Assembly (NCBI GenBank): GCA_903824505.1
Contig: CAIJXG010000136.1
Span: 1-48,702 of the forward strand
Direction: 5' to 3'
Origin: an uncultured Pseudomonadota bacterium
GTDB taxonomy: Bacteria > Pseudomonadota > Alphaproteobacteria > UBA9219
DNA length: 48,702 nt
Positions 6,537 to 48,217 of the stretch are shown one piece after another. A program made the position numbers and the translations under genes. How positions within the stretch are numbered: the stretch's first letter is position 1; each line of letters opens with the position of its first letter. The notes beneath the pieces are model-generated. The model was not told the origin of the DNA. It searched no databases and worked only from the letters and a program-made list of their open reading frames with translations.

Positions 6537-7553
6537 GTGTTGCAAAAGAACTGGAAGTCGCTGATTCAGCCTACGAAGCATGTTCAGGCTGCCGCCACCA
6601 ACCCGAACCTCGCCACCTTGGTGATTGAGCCTTTGGAACGAGGCTTCGGCTGGACCTTGGGTAACGCGTTGCGCCGCGTTCTTTTGTCCTCGCTTCAGGG
6701 CGCGGCCGTGACGGCGGCGCAGATTGAAGGCGTTCTGCACGAATTTTCCTCAATCCCGGGCGTGCGGGAAGATGTGACGGATATCGTCTTGAATCTTAAA
6801 GCGCTGGCCATTCGTATGCATAGCGATGGGCCGAAGCGTGTCCGTCTGCGCGCTGAAGGGGCGGGCGAAGTGACAGCCCGTCAGATTGAAGCCAGCGCGG
6901 GGGTCGAGATCATGAATCCTGACCTCGTGATCTGTACGCTCGATCGCGGGGCAAAACTGTCGATGGAGCTGACGATTGAAACTGGTCGCGGCTACATTCC
7001 GGCGGCGGCTTTGCGCAAGGAAGACACGCCAATTGGTTTGCTCCCTATAGATGCTCTGTTCAGCCCCGTTCGCAAAGTGGCCTATAAGGTCGAACATAGC
7101 CGCGTTGGCCAAGTTACGGACTACGACAAATTGGCGCTGACCGTTGAAACGGATGGCTCTATCTCTCCTGAAGACGCTGTGGCCATTTCCGCCCGCATCC
7201 TGCAAGACCAATTTCAGTTCTTCATTAACTTTGAGGAGCCTCGTCAGGCCTCGGGTGGACAAGAATCCGAATCCCATCTGCCCTTTAACCGCAATCTGCT
7301 GCGCAAGGTTGATGAGCTGGAGCTGTCGGTACGTTCCGCCAACTGCCTCAAGAACGACAATATCGTCTATATCGGCGATTTGGTCCAGAAGAGCGAAGGC
7401 GAAATGCTCCGCACGCCGAATTTCGGCCGGAAGAGCCTGAATGAGATCAAAGAAGTTCTGACTCAGATGGGGTTGACTTTGGGTATGCAAATCCCGGGCT
7501 GGCCACCGGAAAATATCGAAGATCTGGCTAAAAGGCTAGAAGAGCCTTTTTAA
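6537..7553 (+). CDS. rpoA: DNA-directed RNA polymerase alpha subunit
   Basis: The N-terminus [12 protein letters not shown], the motif [11 protein letters not shown] and the CTD sequence [21 protein letters not shown] identify RpoA. The start codon is GTG. Confidence 0.97.
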
Positions 7554-7604
7554 CTCTTTCGAAGAGCAGACATGCTTCAGTCGTAAATAGTTTGATCTTT
7601 TTGA

Positions 7605-7667
7605 AATCACCTTTCCGCGTCATTCCCGCTGGGGCCTGTCCCCGTGAAAACGGGGACGGGGATAACG
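7605..7667. repeat. GC-rich palindromic repeat element in the rpoA-rplQ spacer
   Basis: AATCACCTTTCCGCGTCAT recurs at 37848-37865. The hairpin GTCCCCGTGAAAACGGGGACGGGGA recurs as CCCCCCGTAAAAACGGGGGCGGGGA at 18233-18259. Confidence 0.7.
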
Positions 7668-7871
7668 ATCTGAGAGATTAGGAAAGATGCTCGTTGAGGA
7701 TTGCGAATACAGGATTGAGATGTCTTGAGTTGAAGTAAAATTTTTCTCCCCATATTGACGGGATTGTCCCTTCAAGTGGCGGAGTTTCACAATCGGTTTC
7801 TGCATGAACGCCAAAGGGCGGAATCACAGAAGCCTTAGCGCGGCTTGAAAGGCCCAAGGAAGGAACAGACC

Positions 7872-8312
7872 ATGCGTCATGGAAATGCACACAGGAAATT
7901 GGGCGTCACGGCGAGCCATCGTAAGGCGATGTTCGCGAATATGTCGGTCGCGCTGATTGAAAATGAACAAATTACAACAACTTTGGCCAAGGCGAAGGAT
8001 CTGCGCTCGATCGCCGAGAGTCTGATCACGTTGGGCAAAAAAGGCGGGCTGGCGAATCGCCGCCGCGCTATGTCGATCCTTCATGATGAAACGAGCGTCC
8101 GGAAGCTTTTTGATGGGCTGGCTGAACGGTACAAAGCGCGTCAAGGCGGGTATACCCGCGTGATTAAAGCGGGATTCCGTTATGGCGATGCGGCAGCAAT
8201 GGCGGTGATCGAGCTGGTCGATCGCGATCCAGAAGCCAAGGGCGCCAAGCAACGCGCCCTTTTGGAAAAGAAGAAGGCCGCCGAAGCGGCCGAAGCCGAC
8301 AAAAAGGCCTAA
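7872..8312 (+). CDS. rplQ: 50S ribosomal protein L17
   Basis: [24 protein letters not shown]...GGYTRV identifies L17. I chose the internal Met as the start. Confidence 0.96.
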
Positions 8313-18332: not shown

Positions 18333-18560
18333 TTAATCGTCCGCATTGAGGCTTTTGAAGAGATTTTCAACGGAACCCACGGTCACAAGCTCCTCTCATC
18401 TCGCCGCCATGATGGCGGTGACTGTTTCAGCGTTTGGAACAAGCGGTTCAAAGGGAAGCGCCTTTTCCGCCACAACTCTTTTCAGCATAAGACGCACGGC
18501 ATCGGACAAAGAAAGCCCCCCTCGCTCGTGTGTAAGGTTCCTATTGTTGAAAAGATCCAA
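18333..18560 (-). pseudogene. RelB/DinJ-family antitoxin remnant with an in-frame TGA
   Basis: The minus-strand translation ...GLSLSDAVRLMLKRVVAEKALPFEPLVPNAETVTAIMAAR*EELVTVGSVENLFKSLNADD resembles DinJ (GLTISDLVRITLTKVAREKALPF...DLFDKL). The N-terminal ~25 aa are missing, there is a stop at 18396-18398, and no toxin ORF lies downstream. Confidence 0.55.
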
Positions 18561-19812
18561 TCATTTTAGCAAGTGAGTTTCTCACAAGCTTTGACGATTC
18601 TGCTTGATCTTCAAGTTCTTGTCTCCGGCGGCGTTCTTGTTCAGCCCTGTTGCGATCCAAGGTGACATCACCAACAGCCAGTTGAGCTACAGATCCATTC
18701 CCTCCTGCATGATCCATTCTGGCCTGATAGGGGCTGCGACCATTTGTTTGACAATCATCTGATGCACCCTGATCTATCCTATTGGCATTTTTATCAGCTA
18801 CACACTGTGTTGCCTGCGCTTTATGCATATCTTGATAAATGGGGAGCGCCGTTGCCGTCGCTGGGATCTGAAGATGATCAACCAGTTCAGCAAAACAGGC
18901 TTCTGCAGCGGATTTGCCGTTGTTCATCATGGACTCAACATACCGGTCATAAATGCCGATTATGTCATCTGCCGTTGGGCCATTGGGGCTTATACGACGA
19001 GCAGGGGGCTTCGGGTGAGCTTGCATAAGGCAGTAGGCGTAAGCGGCATAGAAAGAGTGTTCGTCATCCCCACTGGGAGTTTTTAGACTCAAAAAAGGAT
19101 CCGTATTGTTTGGAGGCACGACAAAATTGTCAGGCATTTTGATTTGATCTGGAAGATCTAAGCCAGGGCTATCATCCCAATCTGTCCCTTGACCCGAAGG
19201 GCAGCCTGCTTTTTGATTCATATCGGCTTCGTCTGCATAGGTTGGCCCCGTGCCTCCACTTGGTACATTCTGCGAGGGGGTGCATTTAACAAAGCCTGCA
19301 CTAATTAACCATTTCAGCTTCGCAACTTTTTTATCAGGGGTGGAAATAGCCCCAATTGCATTTCGTGTCATAGCCCCAGCAAGAGTTTTATTCATTTTCT
19401 GCAAAACTCTGTGGGCATCCGACGACTGTTTGAAGGGACATAGGTTTTGTGTATCAGTATTCTCAACATAAGCAGTTCTGCCTGTGACGCGTTCTGCCGT
19501 AGTCTCCCCATTGGCGCCGGATGCATTCCCTACTGATTCCATAACTCCCTGAAATTCATTAGCGTAGGTGTCCATTCTTTGGTTGATCTGGGCAAGCTTT
19601 GTATCGATTGCCATTAGTTGAGGCCAAATGGTGAGTATTTCGAATAAGAGCAGGCCTGATGTTGCTGATTCAGTGACGGGATCAGATACTAAATTAGCTC
19701 TAGCCGATTCTATCGGTACAAGAAGGCCGCTTAAAAGAATAAAGAAAAAGATTTTAATCAGATAACGTGATCCAAACTTTTCTTTTTGACAAGAGGGAGC
19801 GCTTTTAATCAT
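18541..19812 (-). CDS. Secreted Cys-rich hypothetical protein (423 aa from the internal Met)
   Basis: The start at MIKS... is preceded by GAGGGA. A signal peptide (...LLVPIESARA) is present, the mature part has 7 Cys, and the C-terminus carries a charged coiled-coil-like tail. The region is AT-richer and no family is recognised. Confidence 0.7.
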   Translation of the reverse strand: MIKSAPSCQKEKFGSRYLIKIFFFILLSGLLVPIESARANLVSDPVTESATSGLLLFEILTIWPQLMAIDTKLAQINQRMDTYANEFQGVMESVGNASGANGETTAERVTGRTAYVENTDTQNLCPFKQSSDAHRVLQKMNKTLAGAMTRNAIGAISTPDKKVAKLKWLISAGFVKCTPSQNVPSGGTGPTYADEADMNQKAGCPSGQGTDWDDSPGLDLPDQIKMPDNFVVPPNNTDPFLSLKTPSGDDEHSFYAAYAYCLMQAHPKPPARRISPNGPTADDIIGIYDRYVESMMNNGKSAAEACFAELVDHLQIPATATALPIYQDMHKAQATQCVADKNANRIDQGASDDCQTNGRSPYQARMDHAGGNGSVAQLAVGDVTLDRNRAEQERRRRQELEDQAESSKLVRNSLAKMIGSFQQ

Positions 19813-19819
19813 TTTTCCC

Positions 19820-20464
19820 TCACTGCAGCTGAAATTGGGAATAGAGGAACGGCGTCGTCTGATACATGCGGGTGTAATTAGCAACATTGCCCAAGGTGAT
19901 TTTTGTATTGCCACTCCCTAGGCAAGGTAGATTGAAATTGGGCACTTGAAGATTAAAATTAAGGGGAGGTATAGGTAGGCAGATGCCAACATTTCGAATT
20001 TGGCTTACGATATTATTAACTTCTTGTAAAACAGCTTGGCACACTTGGTTGATCACTTGTAGGATAATCTTCATTATCTGTTTCTTGGCAAAATCCATGA
20101 CCACTTGTAAAAGCATGTTTGGATCGCTAAGATTTCCAAGCACATCAAACATGTCCATAAGAGGTTGGACCGCTTGAAGGACGTTTTTAACACAGTTGTT
20201 CACAGAAGGTATGATGTCGGCGGTTTGAGCGGCCGCCCACGGGCGGCTGGCTGTAAAAAGATTGCCGTAAAAGTTTTGTCTATTTGTCTGATATTGTTGA
20301 TTGATTGGTAGCTGCATATCATTATCCGGATTTGCCGTATCACATTCGCTGGCAATTTGATTAACATCACGCTGCTGTGCCGCCCACGCCTTTTGCGGGC
20401 CGAGGGAGAACAGGCCGAAAAAGAGAATCAGCGTAAAGGCTAAGAAATGGCCTTTTTTCAGCAT
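19820..20464 (-). CDS. Secreted Q/N-rich hypothetical protein (~214 aa)
   Basis: A canonical signal peptide MLKKGHFLAFTLILFFGLFSLGPQKAWA is present, along with 5 Cys and a helical central part. The stop lies 7 nt before the start of the downstream 423-aa gene, consistent with an operon. No family is recognised. Confidence 0.7.
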   Translation of the reverse strand: MLKKGHFLAFTLILFFGLFSLGPQKAWAAQQRDVNQIASECDTANPDNDMQLPINQQYQTNRQNFYGNLFTASRPWAAAQTADIIPSVNNCVKNVLQAVQPLMDMFDVLGNLSDPNMLLQVVMDFAKKQIMKIILQVINQVCQAVLQEVNNIVSQIRNVGICLPIPPLNFNLQVPNFNLPCLGSGNTKITLGNVANYTRMYQTTPFLYSQFQLQ

Positions 20465-20562
20465 AGAAACCCCCGAAAACCAAAGAGACAGGATCCTCAA
20501 AACCCCGCCGGACGATGGAAGGAGTATACTATCAAGTGCAGGATTAGGAAATAGTTAATTGT

Positions 20563-20572
20563 GGGGGGGGGG
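20563..20572. repeat. G10 homopolymer (poly-C on the coding strand of the secreted-protein operon)
   Basis: I counted this directly in the sequence. It lies about 34 nt upstream of a candidate -10 (TATACT, complement of 20523-20528) for the minus-strand operon. Confidence 0.9.
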
Positions 20573-21547: not shown

Positions 21548-22330
21548 ATGAATTTTCGCGTCAATCGCCGTCGCCGCCTGTATGAAGGCAAGGCTAAGGT
21601 TCTGTTCGAAGGGCCGGAGCCCGGCACGCTGGTGCAGTATTTCAAAGACGATGCCACGGCGGATAAGGGCGCGCGCAAAGGCATTGTGACGGGCAAAGGG
21701 GTTTTGAATAACCGGATTTCCGAATATCTGATGGTCAAGCTGGGCGAGATCGGCGTGCCGACCCATTTCATGCGCCGCTTAAATATGCGCGAACAGCTGA
21801 TTCGCAAGGTCGAGATTATCCCCGTTGTTCTTGTTGTGCGGAACAGCGTGGCGGGCTCTTTGGCCACGCGTTTGGGCATGGAGGAGGGTACGGCGCTTCC
21901 CCGCTCCATCGTCGAGTTTTATTATAAAAAGAAGGAGCTGGACGATCCGATGGTCTCGGACGAGCATATCACGGCTTTCGGTTGGGCCAGCCCTTACGAA
22001 ATTGATGAAATGATGTCGCTTGCGTTGCGCGTGAACGACTATCTGTCGGGCTTGTTTTTGGGGATCGGGATCAAGTTGATTGATTTCAGGCTGGAATTCG
22101 GCCGCTTGTGGGATAATGACGAAATGTATATTGTTTTGGCCGACGAAATTAGTCCGGATAATTGCCGTTTATGGGATATTAAGACAAATGAAAAGATGGA
22201 TCGGGACCGTTTCCGGCTGGATCTTGGCAAGGTCGCTGAGGCCTATCAGGAAGTCGCCCGCCGTTTGGGTATTATGCCCGAAAATCTTCCCTCTGACGTA
22301 AGTGAGAAAACCTATGAAATTGCGCGTTGA
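21548..22330 (+). CDS. purC: Phosphoribosylaminoimidazole-succinocarboxamide synthase
   Basis: [19 protein letters not shown] and [13 protein letters not shown] identify PurC. Confidence 0.95.
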
Positions 22331-22556
22331 TGTCATGCTGAAAGACGGTGTTCTGGATCCTCAGGGCAAGGCTATTGGCCATGCGTTGGGGCATTTGGGC
22401 TTTGCCGATGTAGGCGAGGTGCGGATGGGCAAGGTGATCGAGCTGGAATTGGCCGAAACGGACGCGGTCAAAGCGGTCGAAACGGTGCGGCAGATGGCTG
22501 AAAAGCTTTTGGCCAATTTGGTTATCGAGGATTTTAAAGTTACCGTTGTGGGGTGA
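22314..22556 (+). CDS. purS: Phosphoribosylformylglycinamidine synthase subunit PurS
   Basis: [30 protein letters not shown] identifies PurS. The product is 80 aa and overlaps the purC 3' end. An alternative start exists at 22302. Confidence 0.9.
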
Positions 22557-22566
22557 TATAAGTATC

Positions 22567-22902
22567 ATGGCTTCTGTAAGTCGCGCTTCTTTTTGTGTTT
22601 CCTGTCTTAGGGCTTTGGTTCTACTGGGCAGCCTTTCGGCCTGCGCGCAGGGCGGAATTATCGCGGCGCTTGAGACGAACAGAGATTGCCCGCCGCCTGT
22701 GCAAGTTGAAGAAAAGGCTCTAGAGATTCAAAATCCGCAAATCGAGATCTGGATTCCCGGTTATTGGGCTCCGGGCCCGCTTGATTTTATTTGGGTTGCA
22801 GGCACAGTCGTGGCGCGTCCGGATCCCACCGCCGTTTGGGCCCCCGCGCGTTGGGATCACCATACCTATGGCTGGTCGTTCGTGCAGGGCTATTGGCAGT
22901 AA
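22567..22902 (+). CDS. YXWGXW-repeat-like putative lipoprotein
   Basis: A signal peptide with the lipobox LGSLSAC is present, with repeated W.PGYW / W..ARW / GYW motifs. Confidence 0.65.
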   Translation: MASVSRASFCVSCLRALVLLGSLSACAQGGIIAALETNRDCPPPVQVEEKALEIQNPQIEIWIPGYWAPGPLDFIWVAGTVVARPDPTAVWAPARWDHHTYGWSFVQGYWQ

Positions 22903-23324
22903 CGGGACTTGAGCGTTTTTTCTTCGCATGTTTTTGGAAAAAAAACGAAAACTTTTGGCCGTGCGCATTTTTTGTCAGAAGTTTCGGAATATCTTCTTGA
23001 CGTTCGGATGGGAACAGCATAAAAACCGCTTGCCTTTACGGAATCGGTCGTGAAGCTTAGCCTTCCAAGGGCGGTTTCAAACACGGCTCCGACAGTGCGA
23101 AAGCACGGTTGGGGATCTCGCAATGTCCTTGCAAAATTAAAGGGGCTGCGCGGGAACGATACGATAGCCTGTGGTGACGAAACGGCTGGCGCGTTTGCCA
23201 AGTGGTGTCATCCGGCGTTTGAAAGGGTCTCCACGCGGGGCGCGGCTCTTAAGCGCTTCGAGGTGGTTTTTTGTTTTTTGGTGGCGGCCCGTTGGGGGTG
23301 CCGCAGAGTTTAACAGAGGGTTCA

Positions 23325-23696
23325 ATGCCAACGATTGGTCAGTTGATTCGCAGTCCGCGCAAGGCGGTCAAAAAGCAGGACAAAGTTCCAGCTCTGCAGG
23401 AATGTCCGCAAAAGCGGGGAGTCTGCACGCGCGTTTATACGACAACGCCGAAAAAGCCGAACTCGGCTTTGCGGAAAGTCGCCCGCGTGCGTCTGACCAA
23501 CGGCCATGAAGTCATCAGCTATATTCCGGGCGAAGGCCACAATCTGCAAGAACATAGTGTCGTGATGATCCGCGGCGGCCGTGTCAAGGATTTGCCCGGT
23601 GTGCGCTATCACATCATTCGCGGCACGCTGGATACGCAAGGCGTGAAGGATCGCAAAAAGCGGCGCTCGTTGTATGGGGCAAAGAGGCCGAAATAA
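23325..23696 (+). CDS. rpsL: 30S ribosomal protein S12
   Basis: MPTIGQLIR...[25 protein letters not shown] identifies S12. Confidence 0.98.
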
Positions 23697-23717
23697 CGCT
23701 TTTTAAGGGGAGGTATT

Positions 23718-24003
23718 ATGGAGAGTTCTTCTTATATTCGTGCTCTTAATGCAAACATTAAGAATATAGAAGAAAAGCTAGAATTAAATGGGGGGGGGCG
23801 AGGTAGCTTCTGTTTACTATGAAGTTACTTTGGAGAAATCTTTTGATGATTATTTTGCTTTAGTTGATATCTTTATCCGTGAGTATCCTCAGGATGCTCT
23901 TAAGTGGGGAGTGAGTGCTTTAGAAATTCTAGGGACTCTTCCTGAGTTGAGTGGGTTGCAACGTTATCTTAAGTCGAAGCTTGATGGGGTTAAGCCTATC
24001 TAG
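23718..24003 (+). CDS. Small AT-rich ORF inserted between rpsL and rpsG and split by a G9 tract
   Basis: A strong RBS AAGGGGAGG precedes the ATG at 23718. That frame ends at the TGA at 23820-23822. A second frame, 23788-24003, continues in +1. Removing one G from the G9 run (23790-23798) gives a continuous ~94-aa ORF. Confidence 0.5.
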
Positions 24004-24021
24004 AATTTTTTGGAGTCTACC

Positions 24022-24495
24022 ATGGCACGTCGTCGTCGCGCAGAAAAGCGTCAGGTTCTTCCGGATCCAAAGTTCGGGGAAGTCATTGTCACGAAGTTTC
24101 AGAACGTCTTGATGTATGACGGGAAGAAATCTGCGGCTGAGCATATCCTGTATGGGGCGCTCGAAAAGATTCAGCGTTTTGCCAAAGGCAGCAACGCCTT
24201 GGACACCTTTAAGGATGCGATTGAAAATGTCCGTCCGCATTTGGAAGTCCGCTCGCGCCGCGTCGGGGGTGCTACCTATCAGGTGCCCGTCGAAGTCCGG
24301 AAAGAGCGCGGTGTAGCCCTTGCCATGCGTTGGATCATTTCCGCCGCTCGCGGCCGCAGCGAACATACGATGATGGATCGTCTGGCCGCCGCGATTGGGG
24401 ATGCCGCCAAGAATGTTGGAACGGCGATCAAAAAGCGCGAAGACACGCACCGCATGGCGGAAGCGAATAAGGCTTTCTCGCATTTTAGGTGGTAA
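24022..24495 (+). CDS. rpsG: 30S ribosomal protein S7
   Basis: [18 protein letters not shown]...[15 protein letters not shown] identifies S7. Confidence 0.98.
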
Positions 24496-24511
24496 GAGAG
24501 TTTAGAGCAGT

Positions 24512-24537
24512 CGTCATCCGCGCTTTCGCGGGGATGG
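24512..24537. repeat. CGTCATCCGCG-CTTT-CGCGGGGATGG palindromic element in the rpsG-fusA spacer
   Basis: This imperfect GC-rich palindrome belongs to the same family as 36015-36045 and 7614-7667. Confidence 0.6.
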
Positions 24538-24587
24538 TGGTGTTTTTGTCTTTGCTTTCGTTTAAACGTCTCAAGAAGTGATCGCTT

Positions 24588-26687
24588 ATGTCTCGTCAAA
24601 CGCCTATCGAATTCTACCGTAACATCGGCATCATGGCCCACATTGATGCCGGTAAAACGACGACGACTGAACGCGTGCTGTATTACACAGGCGTGTCGCA
24701 CAAGATCGGCGAAGTCCATGATGGCAATGCCACGATGGATTGGATGGAGCAGGAACAAGAACGGGGCATCACGATTACCTCGGCGGCGACGACCTGTTAC
24801 TGGACGAACACCCAGACGAACGATAAGTACCGGATTAACATCATCGATACGCCCGGCCACGTGGATTTTACGATTGAGGTGGAGCGTTCCTTGCGCGTCC
24901 TCGACGGCGCGATCTGCTTGCTGGACGGCGTGTCGGGCGTGGAGCCGCAGACGGAAACCGTTTGGCGTCAGGCCGACAAATACCATGTGCCCCGCTTTGT
25001 TTTCGTCAACAAGCTGGATCGCACTGGCGCGAATTTTTTCCGCTGTGTCGAGATGGTCAAAGAACGTCTTGGCGCGAATGTGCTAGTGCTTCAATTGCCT
25101 ATCGGTGCCGAAGCTGATTTCAGGGGAATCATTGATCTCCGTCGCATGAAGGCGGTCGTATGGGAAAATGAAGCCCTTGGCGCGAAATATCATGACGAGG
25201 AAATCCCCGAAAACCTGAAGGCTCAGGCTTTGGAATACCGTCAAAAGCTGCTTGAAGCGGCTGTTGAAATGGATGATGCCGCGATGGAAGCCTATTTGGA
25301 GGGGAAAGAGCCTTCTTTAGAGGTTCTAGACGCCTGTATCCGCAAGGGCACCGTGGCAATGAAGTTTGTGCCAGTCCTGACGGGATCCGCTTTTAAGAAT
25401 AAGGGCGTGCAGCCTTTGCTCGATGCCGTGACTTCTTACCTGCCGTCGCCTTTGGATGTTGGGGCGGTCAAGGGGTTTAAGGTCGATCATGTGGATGAGC
25501 CGGATGAACGTGCGCCGTCCGATGACGCGCCTTTCTCAGGTCTCGCGTTCAAAGTGATGACCGATCCTTTTGTCGGCTCGCTGACCTTCTTCCGCATCTA
25601 TTCGGGCAAGCTGGAATCCGGCACCTATGTCCAAAACACAGTCAAGGGCGAGCGCGAACGAATCGGACGCATGCTGTTGATGCATGCGAATAACCGCGAA
25701 GAAATCAAGGAAGCCTATGCGGGCGATATCGTCGCGCTGGCTGCTTTGAAAGACACGACTACGGGCGACACGCTGTGTGATTCGGCCAAGCCCATCGTGT
25801 TGGAACGGATGGAATTCCCCGAGCCCGTCATCGAAATGGCCATTGAGCCGAAGAGCAAGGGCGATCAGGACAAAATGACAGGCGCGTTGTTGCGGCTGGC
25901 TCAGGAGGATCCTTCTTTCCGTTTGGCTTCGAATCCCGAAACGGGGCAAACCGTTATCAAGGGCATGGGCGAGCTTCATCTTGAAATCAAGGTGGATATC
26001 CTTCAGCGTACCTATAAGGTTGAAGTCAATGTTGGTGCACCTCAAGTCGCCTACCGCGAGACCATCACCAAGAAATACACGATTGACTACACGCACAAGA
26101 AACAGTCCGGCGGATCGGGTCAGTTTGCCCGCGTCATTGTCGAGCTGGAGCCTGTGCCTGCTGGGACGGGGTACTCGTTCGAAAGTAAAGTCGTTGGCGG
26201 TTCGGTGCCTAAGGAATACATTCCGGGCGTCGAAAAAGGTTTCAACGCGTCGAAAGATACGGGCGTGATTGCCGGATTCCCGACGATTGACTTCAAGGCG
26301 ACTCTGGTTGACGGCGCGTATCATGACGTGGACTCTTCGGCGCTCGCGTTTGAAATCGCAGCACGCGCCGCTTTCCGCGAAGGCATGCCGAAGGCGGGCC
26401 CCATCTTGCTCGAGCCGATCATGAAGGTTGAAGTCGTGACGCCGGAAGATTATATGGGCGATGTCATCGGCGATCTGAACAGCCGTCGGGGTCAAATCAG
26501 TGGCATGGATCAACGCGGCAATGCGCGAACGATCGATGCTCAAGTCCCCTTGGCGAATATGTTTGGTTATGTTAACAAGCTCCGCACCATGACTCAGGGC
26601 CGCGCGATGTACTCGATGGTCTTTGATCACTATGAACCGGTTCCTGCGGCGATTGCACAGGAAGTCAAACTGAAAATGGCGGGCTAA
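24588..26687 (+). CDS. fusA: Elongation factor G
   Basis: The G domain motifs [20 protein letters not shown] and NKLD are present over a full-length 699 aa. Confidence 0.98.
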
Positions 26688-26749: not shown

Positions 26750-27937
26750 ATGGCAAAAGAAAAGTTCGACCGCAGTCTGCCTCACTTGAATATCGGCACG
26801 ATCGGTCACGTCGATCACGGCAAGACCTCTTTGACAGCGGCGATTACGAAGATCCGCGCCAAGAAGGGCGGTGCCGAATACAAGGCCTATGACCAGATTG
26901 ACGCGGCACCTGAAGAGCGGGCGCGCGGCATCACGATCTCGACCGCCCATGTTGAATACCGCACAGACAAGCGACACTATGCGCATGTGGACTGCCCTGG
27001 ACACGCGGACTACGTTAAGAACATGATCACGGGCGCGGCTCAGATGGATGGCGCGATCCTCGTTGTCTCCGCTGCCGACGGACCGATGCCGCAAACCCGC
27101 GAACATATCTTGCTTGCACGTCAGGTTGGTGTTCCGTCGATTGTTGTCTTCATGAACAAGATGGACATGGCCGATCCGGAACTGGCCGAGCTGGTCGAAA
27201 TGGAAATCCGTGACCTTTTGACTAAGTACAACTTCCCTGGCGATACCACCCCCATTATCCGTGGGTCGGCTCTGTGCGCTTTGGAAGACAAGAACCCTGA
27301 ACTCGGTGAAGACGCAATCAACAAGCTGATGGATGCGGTGGATGAATTTATCCCGCAGCCCATTCGCGCGCTGGATATGGCCTTCCTGATGCCGGTTGAA
27401 GACGTATTCTCGATCTCGGGTCGTGGTACGGTTGTCACGGGTCGCGTCGAACAAGGCGTGGTCAAGGTTGGCGAAGAAATCGAAATCATCGGTATTCGTC
27501 CGACGGTTAAGACGACGGTCACGGGCGTTGAAATGTTCCGGAAGCTTCTGGATCAGGGGGAGGCGGGCGATAATATCGGCGCATTGCTCCGTGGCACAAA
27601 GCGCGAGGATGTTGAGCGTGGACAAGTTTTGGCCAAGCCCGGCAGTATCACACCGCACACCAAGTTCAAGGCGGAATGCTACATCTTGACCAAGGACGAA
27701 GGGGGCCGTCATACGCCGTTCTTTACAAACTACCGTCCGCAATTCTACTTCCGCACAACGGACGTAACGGGTGAAGTTCATCTGCCAGAAGGCGTCGAAA
27801 TGGTCATGCCAGGCGATAACATCACCTGCGAAGTGCATTTGATCGCGCCGATCGCGATGAATCAAGGGCTGCGATTCGCGATCCGCGAAGGTGGCCGGAC
27901 CGTTGGTGCGGGTGTTGTGGCCTCGATTATCGAGTAA
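26750..27937 (+). CDS. tuf: Elongation factor Tu
   Basis: [18 protein letters not shown] and NKMD are present over 395 aa. Confidence 0.98.
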
Positions 27938-42649: not shown

Positions 42650-42658
42650 CCCCCCCCC
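42650..42658. repeat. C9 homopolymer upstream of the SLT-Tlde1 gene
   Basis: I counted this directly in the sequence. It lies 160 nt upstream of the ATG at 42818. Confidence 0.9.
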
Positions 42659-42817: not shown

Positions 42818-44689
42818 ATGACATATGTAAGAACAAATGATGCTTCAACTGGCGGACCAGCCTTTGAGTCGGGGGCTGATTCAGTTAACGGGGAGTCCCG
42901 AATTGCTGGTGGCTCTGTTGCGGCTGCGGATCGGCCTGATGATAGCAATCATATTGGGCCCGTTGTGGTCAATCAAGAAGACCCTAAACCGTCAGCGACT
43001 CTTCTCGATTCCACCTCCGCGATTGATTTGCAGAATTACGTCTCTTCTGGGCAAAGCCAAAAAGAAGAAGAGCAACGCGAGGCCAAATACGACAACGATA
43101 CCCTGTTGGCTGCGGCTTATTATATGCGCGCCCAGCTGCTTGTGGAAGCATATCGTACAGGTCGTCACAATTCAGAATTTAGGGACAACTGGAATAAACA
43201 GGGTTTTCTGCCCGGGGTTAGTATTGGTGATGGCCGGTCCACAGGGCCAATAGGTGTTCCTTCGGCTGAGGTTATGGATGCCATCCTTAATGCTGCAGAT
43301 GCGGCCGGGGTTAATGCGTCTGAATTATTAGCAATGGCTTTCAGGGAAAGTTCTTTCAATCCAGATGCACACGCTCGCGATAGCTCTGCCTTGGGGCTTT
43401 TTCAGTTCATTGATGGTACGTTTCTTGAGCAAGTTTATAAACACGGGCGCGAAGCTGGTATAGACTCCCGTTATGTGGAAGCGGTTCAGCGCGACTCAAA
43501 GGGGGAATATCAAGTAACTGGTGGTTTAAGACAAGAAGTTCTTAATTTGCGCAGGAATATAACTATTTCCGCAAATCTTGGAGCTTTGTTTGCCAAGGAT
43601 AATCTGGCAGCAATCGAGAGCCGTTTCGGTGAAGAGGCTGTCACTGGCAGAATGTATGAACCTCATTTTTTGGGACAGGGTGGCGCCGCAGGTTTGCTCT
43701 CAGCACTTCAAACAAATCCGAATGGGCCTGCTGCTACTATTCTTCCAAAAGCGGCAAGCGTTGGAACGAACCACAGTCTTTTCTATAAACCAGATGGGAC
43801 CCCTTATACTGTTCAAGAGCTTGACCAGAAGCTTATCAACGTGACCGCATCGGCGGCGGGCCGTTATGACAAGATGGTTGCGGCTGCACGGGGACAAGGG
43901 AGTGAAACGGCGGGGCCAACAAAAGCTGCTGAATTCCCTGCGGCGTCACCTGAATTCTCTTCTGGCGGGTCGTTGGATCCTCATGTGGCGACTTATGTTA
44001 TAGAGACGGGTAAGCTTTATTTTCAAGGACAAGTCTTCACCATAGGTTCTGGTTATGGAGACAAGCATAATGATCCGTTGAGTCAGAATGAAAAACATGG
44101 TGTGACTCCGACGGGGGTCTATCTTTTGGGGGGGTATGATCCTAAACATTCTGTTCACATGAAAAATAATTCATGGATAACAATTCCCGTTTTACATATG
44201 ACGGCGATAACTCCATGGAACACACCCAATAGAGATGCCCCTTCCTTTCTTTTTCACGCAGCAAATAGTCCGAATGATCAGAGCCAAGGGTGTCCGGTTG
44301 TTTCACCAGAGGATGCGCGGACTCTTTTTGGTTTATACCATGCCGGACAATTGACAACGATGAATGTTGTTGCAACGGAAGAAGATCGGTTCTCTCCCAC
44401 TAATATGGCGTCAAATTCTAAAGAGAGAAGAAACGGTAATACCGTTTCTTCTGGCAGGGTTCAGGCAGACAACGCTGCTGCTCAATTCATGGAAGGGGTT
44501 AAAAACGATCTGAATACAGGTGCAGCGGCTGCTCTTCTTGCCCAAAAGCCTCAACCTTCTGAGACGCTTTTTGGATTGAAGGCGGATATGGCCTCGACAC
44601 CAAACAAAATCACCGACACAGCCACTAAGCCCCGATCTCTGGCTGCTTTGGCTTTTAAGCCCATCAAAGAGCCTGCCGCAGCTCTTTAA
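42818..44689 (+). CDS. Two-domain peptidoglycan-active effector-like protein: SLT lytic transglycosylase domain plus Tlde1/DUF2778-like L,D-transpeptidase-fold domain
   Basis: The RBS GGGAGG is present. There is no signal peptide and the N-terminus is hydrophilic and disordered. SLT motifs are AMAFRESSFNP, SSALGLFQFIDGTF and YEPHFLGQGGA. The C-terminal part has GSGYGDKHNDPLSQNEKHGVTPTGVYLLG and FLFHAANSPNDQSQGCPVV (the H...S.GC catalytic signature). The island is AT-richer. Confidence 0.75.
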   Translation: MTYVRTNDASTGGPAFESGADSVNGESRIAGGSVAAADRPDDSNHIGPVVVNQEDPKPSATLLDSTSAIDLQNYVSSGQSQKEEEQREAKYDNDTLLAAAYYMRAQLLVEAYRTGRHNSEFRDNWNKQGFLPGVSIGDGRSTGPIGVPSAEVMDAILNAADAAGVNASELLAMAFRESSFNPDAHARDSSALGLFQFIDGTFLEQVYKHGREAGIDSRYVEAVQRDSKGEYQVTGGLRQEVLNLRRNITISANLGALFAKDNLAAIESRFGEEAVTGRMYEPHFLGQGGAAGLLSALQTNPNGPAATILPKAASVGTNHSLFYKPDGTPYTVQELDQKLINVTASAAGRYDKMVAAARGQGSETAGPTKAAEFPAASPEFSSGGSLDPHVATYVIETGKLYFQGQVFTIGSGYGDKHNDPLSQNEKHGVTPTGVYLLGGYDPKHSVHMKNNSWITIPVLHMTAITPWNTPNRDAPSFLFHAANSPNDQSQGCPVVSPEDARTLFGLYHAGQLTTMNVVATEEDRFSPTNMASNSKERRNGNTVSSGRVQADNAAAQFMEGVKNDLNTGAAAALLAQKPQPSETLFGLKADMASTPNKITDTATKPRSLAALAFKPIKEPAAAL

Positions 44690-45721: not shown

Positions 45722-48217
45722 CTACTGTCCTGTCAGGCGGCGCCACCAGCCGCCTTTGGGCTTGTCCGTTTCGGGGTTTGTAACCTCGTAAGGGGAGGGC
45801 GGGGGCGCGGCCGAGACAGAGGCCGGACGCGGATCGCGGGGCGTTGTATCCAGATCGTGAATGCTTATGGGGAGGGCAGGCGCGGCCGTCGTATAGTTGC
45901 TATGCGGCTGTTCGATGATAAGCGGTGGGCGCGGCGCGGCCGGCGCTAAGCGCGGATCCGCAGGTTCTCCGTTCCCGTTCCGTTCGCTTGTCCCGCTTCG
46001 GCGGCCACGGCCTCCTCGACGGCCCCTACGGCGGCCAGCAGGCCTCCCGTCGCCGGGTACGTCTGCCGCAGAATCGCTTTCTTCTTCTGGGCTGTTTTTG
46101 TCAGATTCGCAATGGGAGTCGCCAGTTTCTATCTTGCCGGAAAGGGATTGATCCGGTCGCGCGTCCCTTGGAGTCGCTGTATCGCGCGGATCGTCCCGAC
46201 CTCCACGGCCAAAGCGGCCTCTCCGACGGGGGGGGCGTTCGCCCCCTTGTCCCGTTCCTTCTTCGCGGCGCGCCGAATCGTTGCGCGGCGCGGGGGCTTC
46301 TTCTTCGGCTTGAGGAAGGGCGATGTCTGAAATTTCGGCCCGTTCTTGGGCGCGTTGGGCTGAGGAAATGGCCAGAATCTGATCGCTGTCCACAGCCGCG
46401 CGGCTCCGTGGATCGACGGAAGCCCCCCGCACCCGTTCCAAACGACAGTCCGGTGCGACAAGCGTATCGTCGCTATGCAGCAAGACTTGCAGGCCATAGC
46501 GGCCTTCAATCTCGTGCAACGCGCCGCGTTTTTGATTCAGGATATAAAGGGCCACCTTGGTCGGCAGATGCAACACCATCTCGCCGCCCGGCTGACGGAT
46601 GCCGTCTTCTTCGATCATGCGCAGGATCGAAATCGCGGCTGAATCCACCGAGCGAATCATGCCGACACCCGCGCAATGGGGGCAGTGTTCAAAATTGATT
46701 TCAGTCAGGCTTGGATGCAGGCGCTGGCGCGACAATTCCAACAGACCAAAGGGCGAGATTCGCCCGATCTGCAGCCGTGCGCGGTCCGCTTTCATTGATT
46801 CTTTTAGGCGCCGTTCGACGGCGGCGTTGTTCCGCCCGTCTTCCATGTCGATAAAGTCGATGACGACCAATCCGGCGAGATCCCGCAAGCGCAGTTGTCG
46901 CGCGACTTCTTCGGCGGCTTCCAGATTGGTCTTCAGCGCCGTGCTTTCGATATGCCGTTCTCTGGTCGCACGACCCGAATTTACGTCGATCGACACCAAC
47001 GCTTCGGTCGGGTTTATAACAATATATCCGCCCGAGCGCAGTTGAACGACAGGGTTGTAAAGCTGATCGATCTGTTTTTCGACATTATGGCGGAAGAACA
47101 GGGGCACGGGATCTTCGTACAGCTTCACCTTGCTTTGATCTTCGGGCATGATCGAGCGCATGAATTCGCTGGCCAGCAGATAGCCCGCCTGTCCCGCGAC
47201 CGTGATTTCTTCGACATCCGCCGCGTGCAAATCACGGATCGAGCGTTTGATCAGATTCGCTTCTTCATAAATCAGCGCCGGCGCGCTTGACGCCAGTGTT
47301 TGTTCGCGAATCGTGTTCCATAAACGAAGCAAATGTTCCAAGTCGCGTTGAATTTCGGGGGGGGCTTGCTCCATACCCGCCGTGCGCAAAATGACCGCCA
47401 TGCCTTCGGGCGTTTCAAGCTGATCAAGGATGTCCTTCATCCGCTTGCGGTCTTGATGACTGGTGATCTTACGCGAGACTCCACCGCCGCGATCTGTGTT
47501 CGGCATTAATACGCAATAGCGTCCGGCCAAAGACAGAAAGGTCGTCAGAGCAGCGCCTTTATTGCCGCGCTCTTCCTTGACCACCTGCACCAGCATGACT
47601 TGGCGGCGTTTGACAACTTCTTGAATGCGGTAGTCGGGACGGCGTTGACGGTGGAAATGCTCCTCTGTTTCCTCATCCACGCTTTCGCCGCCTATAGTTT
47701 CGATGGGCTGCGGCGCAAAAGACGGCTCCACAATGGCCGCGCCGAAATCGGTAATGAGGCCCAACTCATCCGCCGGATTTTCGTACGCAAAAGCGGGGAC
47801 CGCGCTCTCGGGAGGTGCGGAAGGCGAGGCCAGCAGAATAGGGGGGGGATCTTCCGGCGAGAGTGGCAGCTCTTCGGTGTGGGCGAATGGCGGCTCCACT
47901 CGGGGCAGGGGGGTGGAAGTTGGGATTGAATCGTCTTCTCCCTCCTCCTCGTCCGGTGCCCGATCCGACATGGGGATTCGGAAATAATCCGGATGAATTT
48001 CGGTGAAAGACAGGAAGCCGTGGCGATTGCCGCCATATTCCACAAAGGCAGCCTGAAGCGAGGGTTCGATTCGCACGACCCGCGCCAGATAGATGTTGCC
48101 TTTAAGCTGCTTCTTACTGGCGCTTTCGAAGTCGAAATCTTCCAGCCTGTTCTTGTCAACGATGGCTACGCGGGTCTCTTCAGGATGCGTGGCATCCACC
48201 AACATGCGCTTTGTCAT
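45722..48217 (-). CDS. rne: Ribonuclease E
   Basis: MLVDATHPEETRVAIVD...NIYLARVVRIEPSLQAAFVEYG (S1 domain), then an acidic/Pro-rich ~120-aa insertion, then the catalytic core (LVSIDVNSG, VVIDFIDM and the Zn-link CPHCAG). The C-terminal tail is Arg/Pro-rich. Confidence 0.95.
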   Translation of the reverse strand: MTKRMLVDATHPEETRVAIVDKNRLEDFDFESASKKQLKGNIYLARVVRIEPSLQAAFVEYGGNRHGFLSFTEIHPDYFRIPMSDRAPDEEEGEDDSIPTSTPLPRVEPPFAHTEELPLSPEDPPPILLASPSAPPESAVPAFAYENPADELGLITDFGAAIVEPSFAPQPIETIGGESVDEETEEHFHRQRRPDYRIQEVVKRRQVMLVQVVKEERGNKGAALTTFLSLAGRYCVLMPNTDRGGGVSRKITSHQDRKRMKDILDQLETPEGMAVILRTAGMEQAPPEIQRDLEHLLRLWNTIREQTLASSAPALIYEEANLIKRSIRDLHAADVEEITVAGQAGYLLASEFMRSIMPEDQSKVKLYEDPVPLFFRHNVEKQIDQLYNPVVQLRSGGYIVINPTEALVSIDVNSGRATRERHIESTALKTNLEAAEEVARQLRLRDLAGLVVIDFIDMEDGRNNAAVERRLKESMKADRARLQIGRISPFGLLELSRQRLHPSLTEINFEHCPHCAGVGMIRSVDSAAISILRMIEEDGIRQPGGEMVLHLPTKVALYILNQKRGALHEIEGRYGLQVLLHSDDTLVAPDCRLERVRGASVDPRSRAAVDSDQILAISSAQRAQERAEISDIALPQAEEEAPAPRNDSARREEGTGQGGERPPRRRGRFGRGGRDDPRDTATPRDARPDQSLSGKIETGDSHCESDKNSPEEESDSAADVPGDGRPAGRRRGRRGGRGRRSGTSERNGNGEPADPRLAPAAPRPPLIIEQPHSNYTTAAPALPISIHDLDTTPRDPRPASVSAAPPPSPYEVTNPETDKPKGGWWRRLTGQ

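Follow-up and report, generated by a model that had tools for sequence, protein, structure and literature searches.

Organization of the rpsL–rpsG Locus

The window, i.e., the whole 48,702-nt stretch of DNA that was analyzed, carries a str operon in the order rpsL–rpsG–fusA–tuf, with S12, S7, EF-G and EF-Tu all encoded on one strand according to the Pfam assignments for the genes called in the independent assembly L001 (Table 1). The rpsL product is 74–93% identical to the S12 proteins of related loci, and the gene ends with a TAA codon at 23694–23696. The gap between this stop and the S7 start is filled by an AT-rich spacer of 325 bp, which harbors two reading frames, ORF-A and ORF-B, that meet at a run of nine G residues. 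No minus-strand ORF confined to this insert is present in the ORF list of the window.

ORF-A and ORF-B were both called by the gene finder. ORF-A is closed by a stop codon at 23820–23822, i.e., 199 nt before rpsG. In the frame of ORF-B, a TAA directly precedes the ATG at 23788, which is composed of AT and the first G of the tract and looks incidental; a TAG at 24001–24003 ends this frame 18 nt before the rpsG ATG. The Shine–Dalgarno sequence of rpsG, kept at the 3′ edge of the insert, occupies the same place in relatives, where it reads GAGGAG or GGAG. A predicted hairpin of doubtful significance begins directly after the G tract; the 101-nt stretch that contains it (23760–23860) gave a fold z-score of −2.4.

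An initial annotation, made from the sequence, had described this arrangement. When the sequence was re-read, each of the coordinates given there proved correct. The insert, given there as about 325 bp and AT-rich, spans exactly 23697–24021; the strong ribosome-binding site was found 4 nt ahead of ATG 23718, and the frame break at G9, with the +1 frame continuing to 24003, was seen as described.

Table 1. Coordinates of the str operon, of the features of the rpsL–rpsG insert, and of the passenger ORF in a sister-clade contig.
Feature	Position	Strand	Description and basis
rpsL (ribosomal protein S12)	23325–23696	+	Intact, 123 aa; translation; PF00164 on the gene call in L001
AT-rich insert, whole rpsL–rpsG spacer	23697–24021	+	325 bp, GC 0.388; spacer length compared with relatives
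Shine–Dalgarno-like AAGGGGAGG	23705–23713	+	4 nt ahead of ATG 23718; read from sequence
ORF-A	23718–23822	+	N-terminal 24 codons, G tract, 7 out-of-frame codons and TGA (34 aa); called in L001
ORF-B	23788–24003	+	C-terminal 70 codons in the +1 frame (71 aa)
G9 homopolymer	23790–23798	+	Site of the frame break; read from sequence
Predicted hairpin	23799–23832	+	12 bp with 3 G-U pairs, 10-nt loop; begins directly after the G tract and holds the ORF-A stop; significance doubtful
GGAG, Shine–Dalgarno of rpsG	24012–24015	+	Located 6 nt ahead of the rpsG ATG, at the insert's 3′ edge; read from sequence
rpsG (ribosomal protein S7)	24022–24495	+	Intact, 157 aa; PF00177
str operon ORFs	23325–23696, 24022–24495, 24588–26687, 26750–27937	+	ORF list
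89-aa ORF, sister clade	278–547	operon strand	4,035-nt contig, IMG sample 3300075153, S7 = P0004; S12 at 2–268, S7 at 555–1028

The surroundings of the operon show several further features. The rpsG–fusA spacer (24496–24587) measures 92 nt, compared with 12–36 nt in most sister-clade contigs (one has ~200 nt),. Within it, a GC hairpin, CATCCGCGCTTTCGCGGGGATG, precedes a T-rich stretch, an arrangement that has the look of a terminator or attenuator separating S7 from EF-G. The region upstream of the str operon (21548–23324) encodes purC, purS and a 118-aa ORF without a family, and no rpoBC; the sister clade has polA. The rpoA–rplQ pair (6537–8312) is located ~15 kb upstream of rpsL and not after the S10–spc cluster; the ribosomal super-operon is thus rearranged in this lineage.

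Compositional Evidence for a Probable Foreign Origin

The GC content of the spacer, 0.388 versus 0.541 for the window, ties for the lowest of any 300-nt stretch in the window. Third codon positions of the host genes contain ~30% C and 20–27% T; the insert ORF, with 6% C, is more extreme in its low C3 than any other ORF of 70 codons or longer in the window. Using 14 host genes as the reference, its codon adaptation index was calculated as 0.60, compared with 0.72–0.80 for 13 of the 14. The fourteenth, an SLT/YkuD gene at 42818–44689, is itself compositionally atypical, with an index of 0.61. GC content, C3 and codon adaptation index are thus all in line with the foreign character that had been attributed to the insert from its letters.

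Coding Signals Across the G Tract

Shortening the tract by one G (G8) joins the two frames into a protein of 94 aa, MESSSYIRALNANIKNIEEKLELNGGGEVASVYYEV...KLDGVKPI, precisely the fusion quoted in the initial annotation, and lengthening it by two (G11) yields 95 aa; the junction peptide of the fused form is LELNGGGEVASVYYEVTLEK. When the spacer was shuffled 5000 times with its dinucleotides preserved, ORFs of 71 codons or longer turned up with P = 0.0076 and ORFs of 94 codons or longer with P = 0.0002. The ORF displays a clear three-base periodicity (base × codon-position chi-square 31.3, p = 2e-5), and its pattern is coding-like, with a G-rich first position, an A/T-rich second position and a third position of 51% T and 6% C.

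The bias was then resolved by frame on either side of the tract. In the 24 codons ahead of it, T3 is 0.50 and C3 is 0.04 only in the frame of ATG 23718; in the 67 codons that follow, T3 is 0.54 and C3 is 0.06 only in the +1 frame. Codon bias therefore switches frame exactly at the G run, which is the pattern expected of one gene split by a 1-nt indel. Past the tract, the ORF-B frame runs for 70 codons without a stop; given that a 71-codon ORF appeared in only 0.76% of the shuffles, the shift would be recent or reversible. As the insert occurs in no relative and no homologue was found, the coding claim is drawn from these intrinsic signals, which are fairly strong. Codon bias, periodicity and shuffle P-values agree with each other and with the single small ORF, interrupted by a G tract, that had first been noticed here: the insert looks like one real protein gene broken at the G tract by a 1-nt shift.

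The same two frames could also represent two separate proteins, a 34-aa product translated from the strong Shine–Dalgarno sequence and a 71-aa product translated from ATG 23788, e.g., by re-initiation after termination 32 nt downstream. Each ORF does start with ATG and was recognized by the gene finder, and ORF-B begins at the first codon past the in-frame TAA. However, no Shine–Dalgarno sequence precedes ATG 23788, which is created by the tract itself and looks incidental, and the last 7 codons of ORF-A lie in a frame without coding bias. We consider it very unlikely that the insert encodes two independent products.

Predicted Product and Homology Searches

The in-frame product of 94 codons is acidic (pI 4.64, 10.6 kDa, GRAVY −0.12), and no signal peptide or hydrophobic segment was detected in the translated 94-aa sequence. 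AlphaFold modeling from the single sequence, a structure prediction that had been suggested for the fusion, gave five helices at low confidence (pLDDT 60), and the product is accordingly predicted to be all-helical. In this model, the G tract, read in frame, would encode a Gly-Gly-Gly linker after helix 1, modeled as coil at residues 24–26. The tract falls into the 5′ quarter of the gene (codons 25–27 of 94), where, judging from the predicted coil, changes of 3 nt would probably be tolerated. A Foldseek search of the PDB with the model returned nothing at E < 1; with a weak model and no structural match, the fold was left unassigned.

Sequence searches gave a similar picture, and the earlier remark that the protein has no recognizable family held across profile, protein, PDB and DNA libraries. 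Profiles from Pfam, NCBIfam, PHROGs and PADLOC produced 0 matches at E ≤ 10. Against PDB sequences, no match was significant, the best (E = 0.09) being to designed three-helix bundles. Both a word-indexed search of 5.8 billion proteins and a full HMMER scan of 1.84 billion cluster representatives retrieved nothing but the 71-aa and 34-aa products of the window itself, and no version of 94 or 95 aa appeared in either, at a detection limit where, for a 94-aa query in libraries of this size, a relative below ~30% identity falls under the reporting threshold. No relative of the protein was found in JGI metagenome contigs and IMG/VR viral contigs, or by tblastn against phages and plasmids.

The Locus in Related Genomes

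The host is an uncultured alphaproteobacterium from lake water without a close cultured relative. Its S7 protein is at most 71% identical to those of GTDB representatives among the matches listed, and the nearest S7 sequences belong to a metagenome-derived clade with 83–86% identity. One ENA contig of 1,322 nt (P0003) encodes a 262-aa 'S7' that is a tandem duplication or chimera of two S7 sequences; it is probably an assembly artefact and is unrelated to the insert.

To compare the spacer in related genomes, as had been proposed, 168 related loci holding both rpsL and rpsG were surveyed. The median spacer was 15 nt; 19 of the 168 reached at least 100 nt, and a single one exceeded 200 nt. The spacers of relatives are GC-typical and unrelated in sequence to the insert. 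Apart from the one above 200 nt, the long ones contain no start-to-stop ORF, and none resembles the insert. Within the 83–86% clade, nine of the ten contigs checked lack the insert and have spacers of 12–23 nt, comprising little beyond the rpsG Shine–Dalgarno sequence, which indicates that the insert is specific to this lineage.

The tenth sister-clade contig encodes an 89-aa ORF without a Pfam match, tightly packed between S12 and S7; the S7 of this contig is 85% identical to that of the host and belongs to the clade closest to it. The longest spacer of the survey, 530 nt at 1971–2500 of L041 (CAVUBU010000002.1, an alphaproteobacterial MAG), encodes a secreted DUF4189 protein (E = 1.3e-14). 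Passenger genes between rpsL and rpsG are therefore rare, not unique: one was found in 1 of 168 relatives and one in a single sister-clade contig, a frequency that fits the initial remark that a passenger gene in the str operon is unusual.

Judged from its composition, coding signals and distribution, the insert is most likely a lineage-specific, horizontally acquired segment carrying one small orphan gene.

Other Identities Considered for the Insert

Several other identities of the insert were considered. Neither terminal inverted or direct repeats nor a target-site duplication were found at the insert, and no second copy of it is present within the 48.7-kb window. A mobile element of the IS or MITE type was ruled out, as the insert is single-copy in the window and lacks terminal repeats and target duplication. 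Inspection by eye revealed one GTTRRRY-like site, GTTAAGC at 23988–23994, which is about the number expected by chance, with no inverse core at attC distance; an integron cassette was rejected because no attC-like pair is present. Chimeric assembly was likewise dismissed, since both junctions are confirmed by Logan contigs, one running from rpsL into 276 nt of the insert and the other from the final 67 nt of the insert into rpsG.

Within the insert, no tRNA or tmRNA and no promoter-like site was found; a search for terminators gave two terminator-like matches, both without a real T tract. Having neither a promoter nor a terminator of its own, the insert is most naturally read as co-transcribed with the str operon.

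Non-coding functions were weighed against the coding signals described above. Rfam gave no match at E ≤ 1 over 22800–24700, and the fold of the whole insert reached a z-score of only −2.07 relative to shuffles; an S7-binding str-operon leader RNA was not supported by these results. In a broader form, the AT-rich insert would be an expansion without coding function, one that might regulate the str operon as an RNA, for instance by binding S7, and its ORFs would be incidental. The insert does fold somewhat better than its shuffles, and no homologue of its product was found among about 15 billion proteins. Moreover, roughly one-third of bacterial genomes are reported to have an extended rpsL–rpsG spacer, which serves as the S7 operator in E. 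coli (PMC3616713). Against this stand the strong three-base periodicity, the change of codon bias from one frame to the other exactly at the G tract, an ORF length that is improbable by chance and the presence of a strong Shine–Dalgarno sequence with an ATG, along with the lack of an Rfam match. The spacers of relatives also offer no precedent, being no longer than 200 nt with one outlier, GC-typical and unrelated in sequence. A non-coding insert thus appears improbable to us.

Reliability of the G9 Tract

Three assemblies were compared at the tract. A second assembly (ENA ERZ27313308, a 27.9-kb contig) also has G9, and over 6,216 nt it differs by a single substitution, at 24715. From run X1, a Logan contig spanning 23300–23972 likewise has G9 and shows no difference or gap. 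G9 is the only allele in the three assemblies, with no alternative contig, and all three derive from one public run, the only one with the insert: a lake-water metagenome of ~11x k-mer depth, available as contigs, which drop minor variants. The agreement of three assemblies from one run excludes an assembly error and leaves a sequencing error as a candidate.

The tract could accordingly be a homopolymer miscount, with a true G8 and an intact 94-codon ORF, or with a G8/G9 mixture of which the majority path was kept. On Illumina instruments, G homopolymers are the most error-prone tracts, all assemblies go back to the single public run of ~11x depth, and the half-ORFs join perfectly with one G fewer. 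On the other hand, G9 is common to three different assemblies, and neither protein search returned a 94-aa or 95-aa version. The RNase E/G gene of the window offers an internal control: it contains three G8 tracts in frame, one of them inside an uninterrupted Pfam catalytic-domain match, so homopolymers of about this length were assembled correctly. We regard a miscount as unlikely.

Long G/C Runs in the Window

Homopolymer runs were counted across the window. Six G/C runs of at least 8 nt are present, compared with 1.7 expected under a first-order Markov model and 0.48 per 48.7 kb in 814 kb of the relatives' loci, i.e., a density ~12x that of the related loci. Runs of at least 9 nt number three, against 0.12 expected, and all three are located in or just upstream of genes of atypical composition.

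Besides the G9 tract in the insert, there is a G10 run (20563–20572; C10 on the coding strand), with two AT-rich orphan ORFs beginning 63 nt downstream of it on the minus strand, 19820–20500 and 18541–19914 (226 and 457 aa). Their N-termini resemble signal peptides, and neither belongs to a Pfam family. Next to this run, just after the lgt stop, is an inverted repeat of 11 bp, CAGCAATTCTA / TAGAATTGCTG. The region could be the phase-variable promoter region of a second foreign island. A C9 run (42650–42658) is intergenic, ~160 nt upstream of the SLT/YkuD gene, whose 623-aa product combines a lytic transglycosylase with an L,D-transpeptidase; with T3 of 39% and a codon adaptation index of 0.61, this gene is atypical for the window. 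The remaining runs are the C8 tracts (coding strand) of the RNase E/G gene (45722–48217, minus strand) at 46228–46235, 47357–47364 and 47841–47848, all in frame and encoding Pro-Pro.

Overall, the runs are reminiscent of contingency loci, which makes switching modestly more likely a priori. The G8 tracts that lie in frame in an essential gene show, in turn, that this genome generally tolerates such tracts, and the abundance of G runs may be a mutational quirk and not the result of selection for switches.

Origin of the Frame Break

The insert gene, with a Shine–Dalgarno sequence of its own, occupies precisely the interval from the stop of S12 to the ribosome-binding site of S7; we propose that it is transcribed within the str operon as rpsL, insert, rpsG, fusA and tuf. 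In the one population sampled, with G9 in place of G8 or G11, translation from ATG 23718 would end after 34 residues, corresponding to an OFF state. The break may have arisen as a DNA-level slipped-strand indel in a hypermutable homopolymer, and the tract may revert, with G8 or G11 representing the ON state. The passenger gene would then be phase-variable de facto, or else at the very start of its decay. On balance, we lean toward this reading, in which an acquired orphan gene, expressed from the str operon, is OFF through a homopolymer indel at G9 and is switchable or decaying, and hold it to be somewhat probable. It builds on the anatomy of the locus, the foreign composition, the coding signal that continues across the shift, the absence of the insert from relatives and the G9 consensus.

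The frame could alternatively be restored during expression. Frameshifting by −1 was rejected, as the −1 frame stops after two codons and only +1 or −2 would work. The G9 tract would then be functional, and a +1 ribosomal frameshift at GGG|CGA, or slippage of the RNA polymerase, would produce the 34-aa and 94-aa products in a fixed ratio. The shift needed is indeed +1, a P-site GGG can re-pair on GGC, and the frame past the tract has remained intact. CGA, the codon that follows, is a minor one for Arg, at 7% of Arg codons in the 14 host genes, which is not extreme. The G run resembles the stimulator of prfB, the Shine–Dalgarno-like AGGGGG, and a nine-base homopolymer matches the length of the RNA–DNA hybrid. 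Several points argue against recoding, however. No homologue was found that would show the site to be conserved. The distance from the Shine–Dalgarno-like run to the shift codon is 0–1 nt, compared with 3 nt in prfB. A hairpin that follows downstream without a spacer is a geometry linked to −1 frameshifting, and the −1 frame stops at once. Transcriptional slippage in bacteria has been documented mostly at A/T runs. Recoding at G9 therefore seems to us a rather improbable explanation.

Returning to the DNA-level indel, its reversible form can be compared with what defines contingency loci. Such loci have a mutable tract of about seven or more G/C in the 5′ coding region or the promoter, G9 being of the former kind, and their frame is restored by other tract lengths, as happens here with G8 (94 aa) and G11 (95 aa). 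Against the switch reading, the translated sequence shows no signal peptide and no apparent surface or restriction–modification character, unlike classical phase-variable genes. It is in our estimate highly doubtful that the G tract genuinely turns a small helical str-operon protein ON and OFF, or tunes it by frameshifting, and could in this way also change S7/EF-G coupling.

Implications for the str Operon

The insert is unusual in its position but ordinary in kind, as an acquired orphan gene frameshifted at a homopolymer, and is known from a single sample. Should it be real and expressed, an operon among the most conserved and most highly expressed of a bacterium can take in a foreign orphan gene without being destroyed, here between S12 and S7, whose translation is coupled in E. 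coli.

If the switch were true, it would represent a stochastic switch acting on core translation genes and one of several poly-G/C contingency loci in a lake-water alphaproteobacterium; to our knowledge, none has been described from this lineage. The 89-aa ORF of the sister clade might in that case be a distant member of the same str-operon passenger family. The insert also marks the lineage as unusually rich in long G/C homopolymers beside accessory genes, which would extend the biology of contingency loci beyond host-adapted pathogens.

A consequence for S7 can also be considered. The intact ORF would come to within 18 nt of rpsG, whereas 199 nt separate rpsG from the stop of the G9 form, and in E. 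coli translational coupling to upstream genes accounts for 80–90% of S7 synthesis (PMC3616713). Taken together, these values raise the speculation that the state of the tract could alter S7 output; rpsG itself keeps its GGAG.

Comparison with Known Systems

The S7 operator of E. coli shares its genomic position with the insert, and any element located there can affect S7 coupling (PMC3616713). The insert differs from it in having no Rfam match, a length of 325 nt, an AT-rich composition and a protein-coding periodicity.

The closest parallels in arrangement are the DUF4189 gene of L041 and the 89-aa ORF of the sister clade, each of which, like the insert, is a small non-ribosomal ORF fitted closely between the S12 and S7 genes and read in the direction of the operon. 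In contrast to the insert, the DUF4189 gene is GC-typical and encodes a secreted product of unrelated sequence, and a homopolymer break is not known from either of the two.

With the +1 frameshifting of prfB, the G9 site shares the +1 shift, a G-rich Shine–Dalgarno-like stretch and a poorly used A-site codon (CGA). It differs in the absence of an in-frame stop at the shift site and in its spacing.

Finally, the insert can be set beside the contingency loci of Neisseria, Haemophilus, Campylobacter and Helicobacter. Its predicted product looks unlike theirs, being small, acidic and cytoplasmic-looking instead of a surface, LPS or restriction–modification protein, and its setting differs as well, with a single G9 allele in a core ribosomal operon of an uncultured lake-water alphaproteobacterium. 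What it has in common with these loci is a run of at least 8 G in the 5′ coding part, a 1-nt length change that toggles between a full-length and a truncated product, and an accessory, compositionally atypical gene with further long G/C runs nearby.
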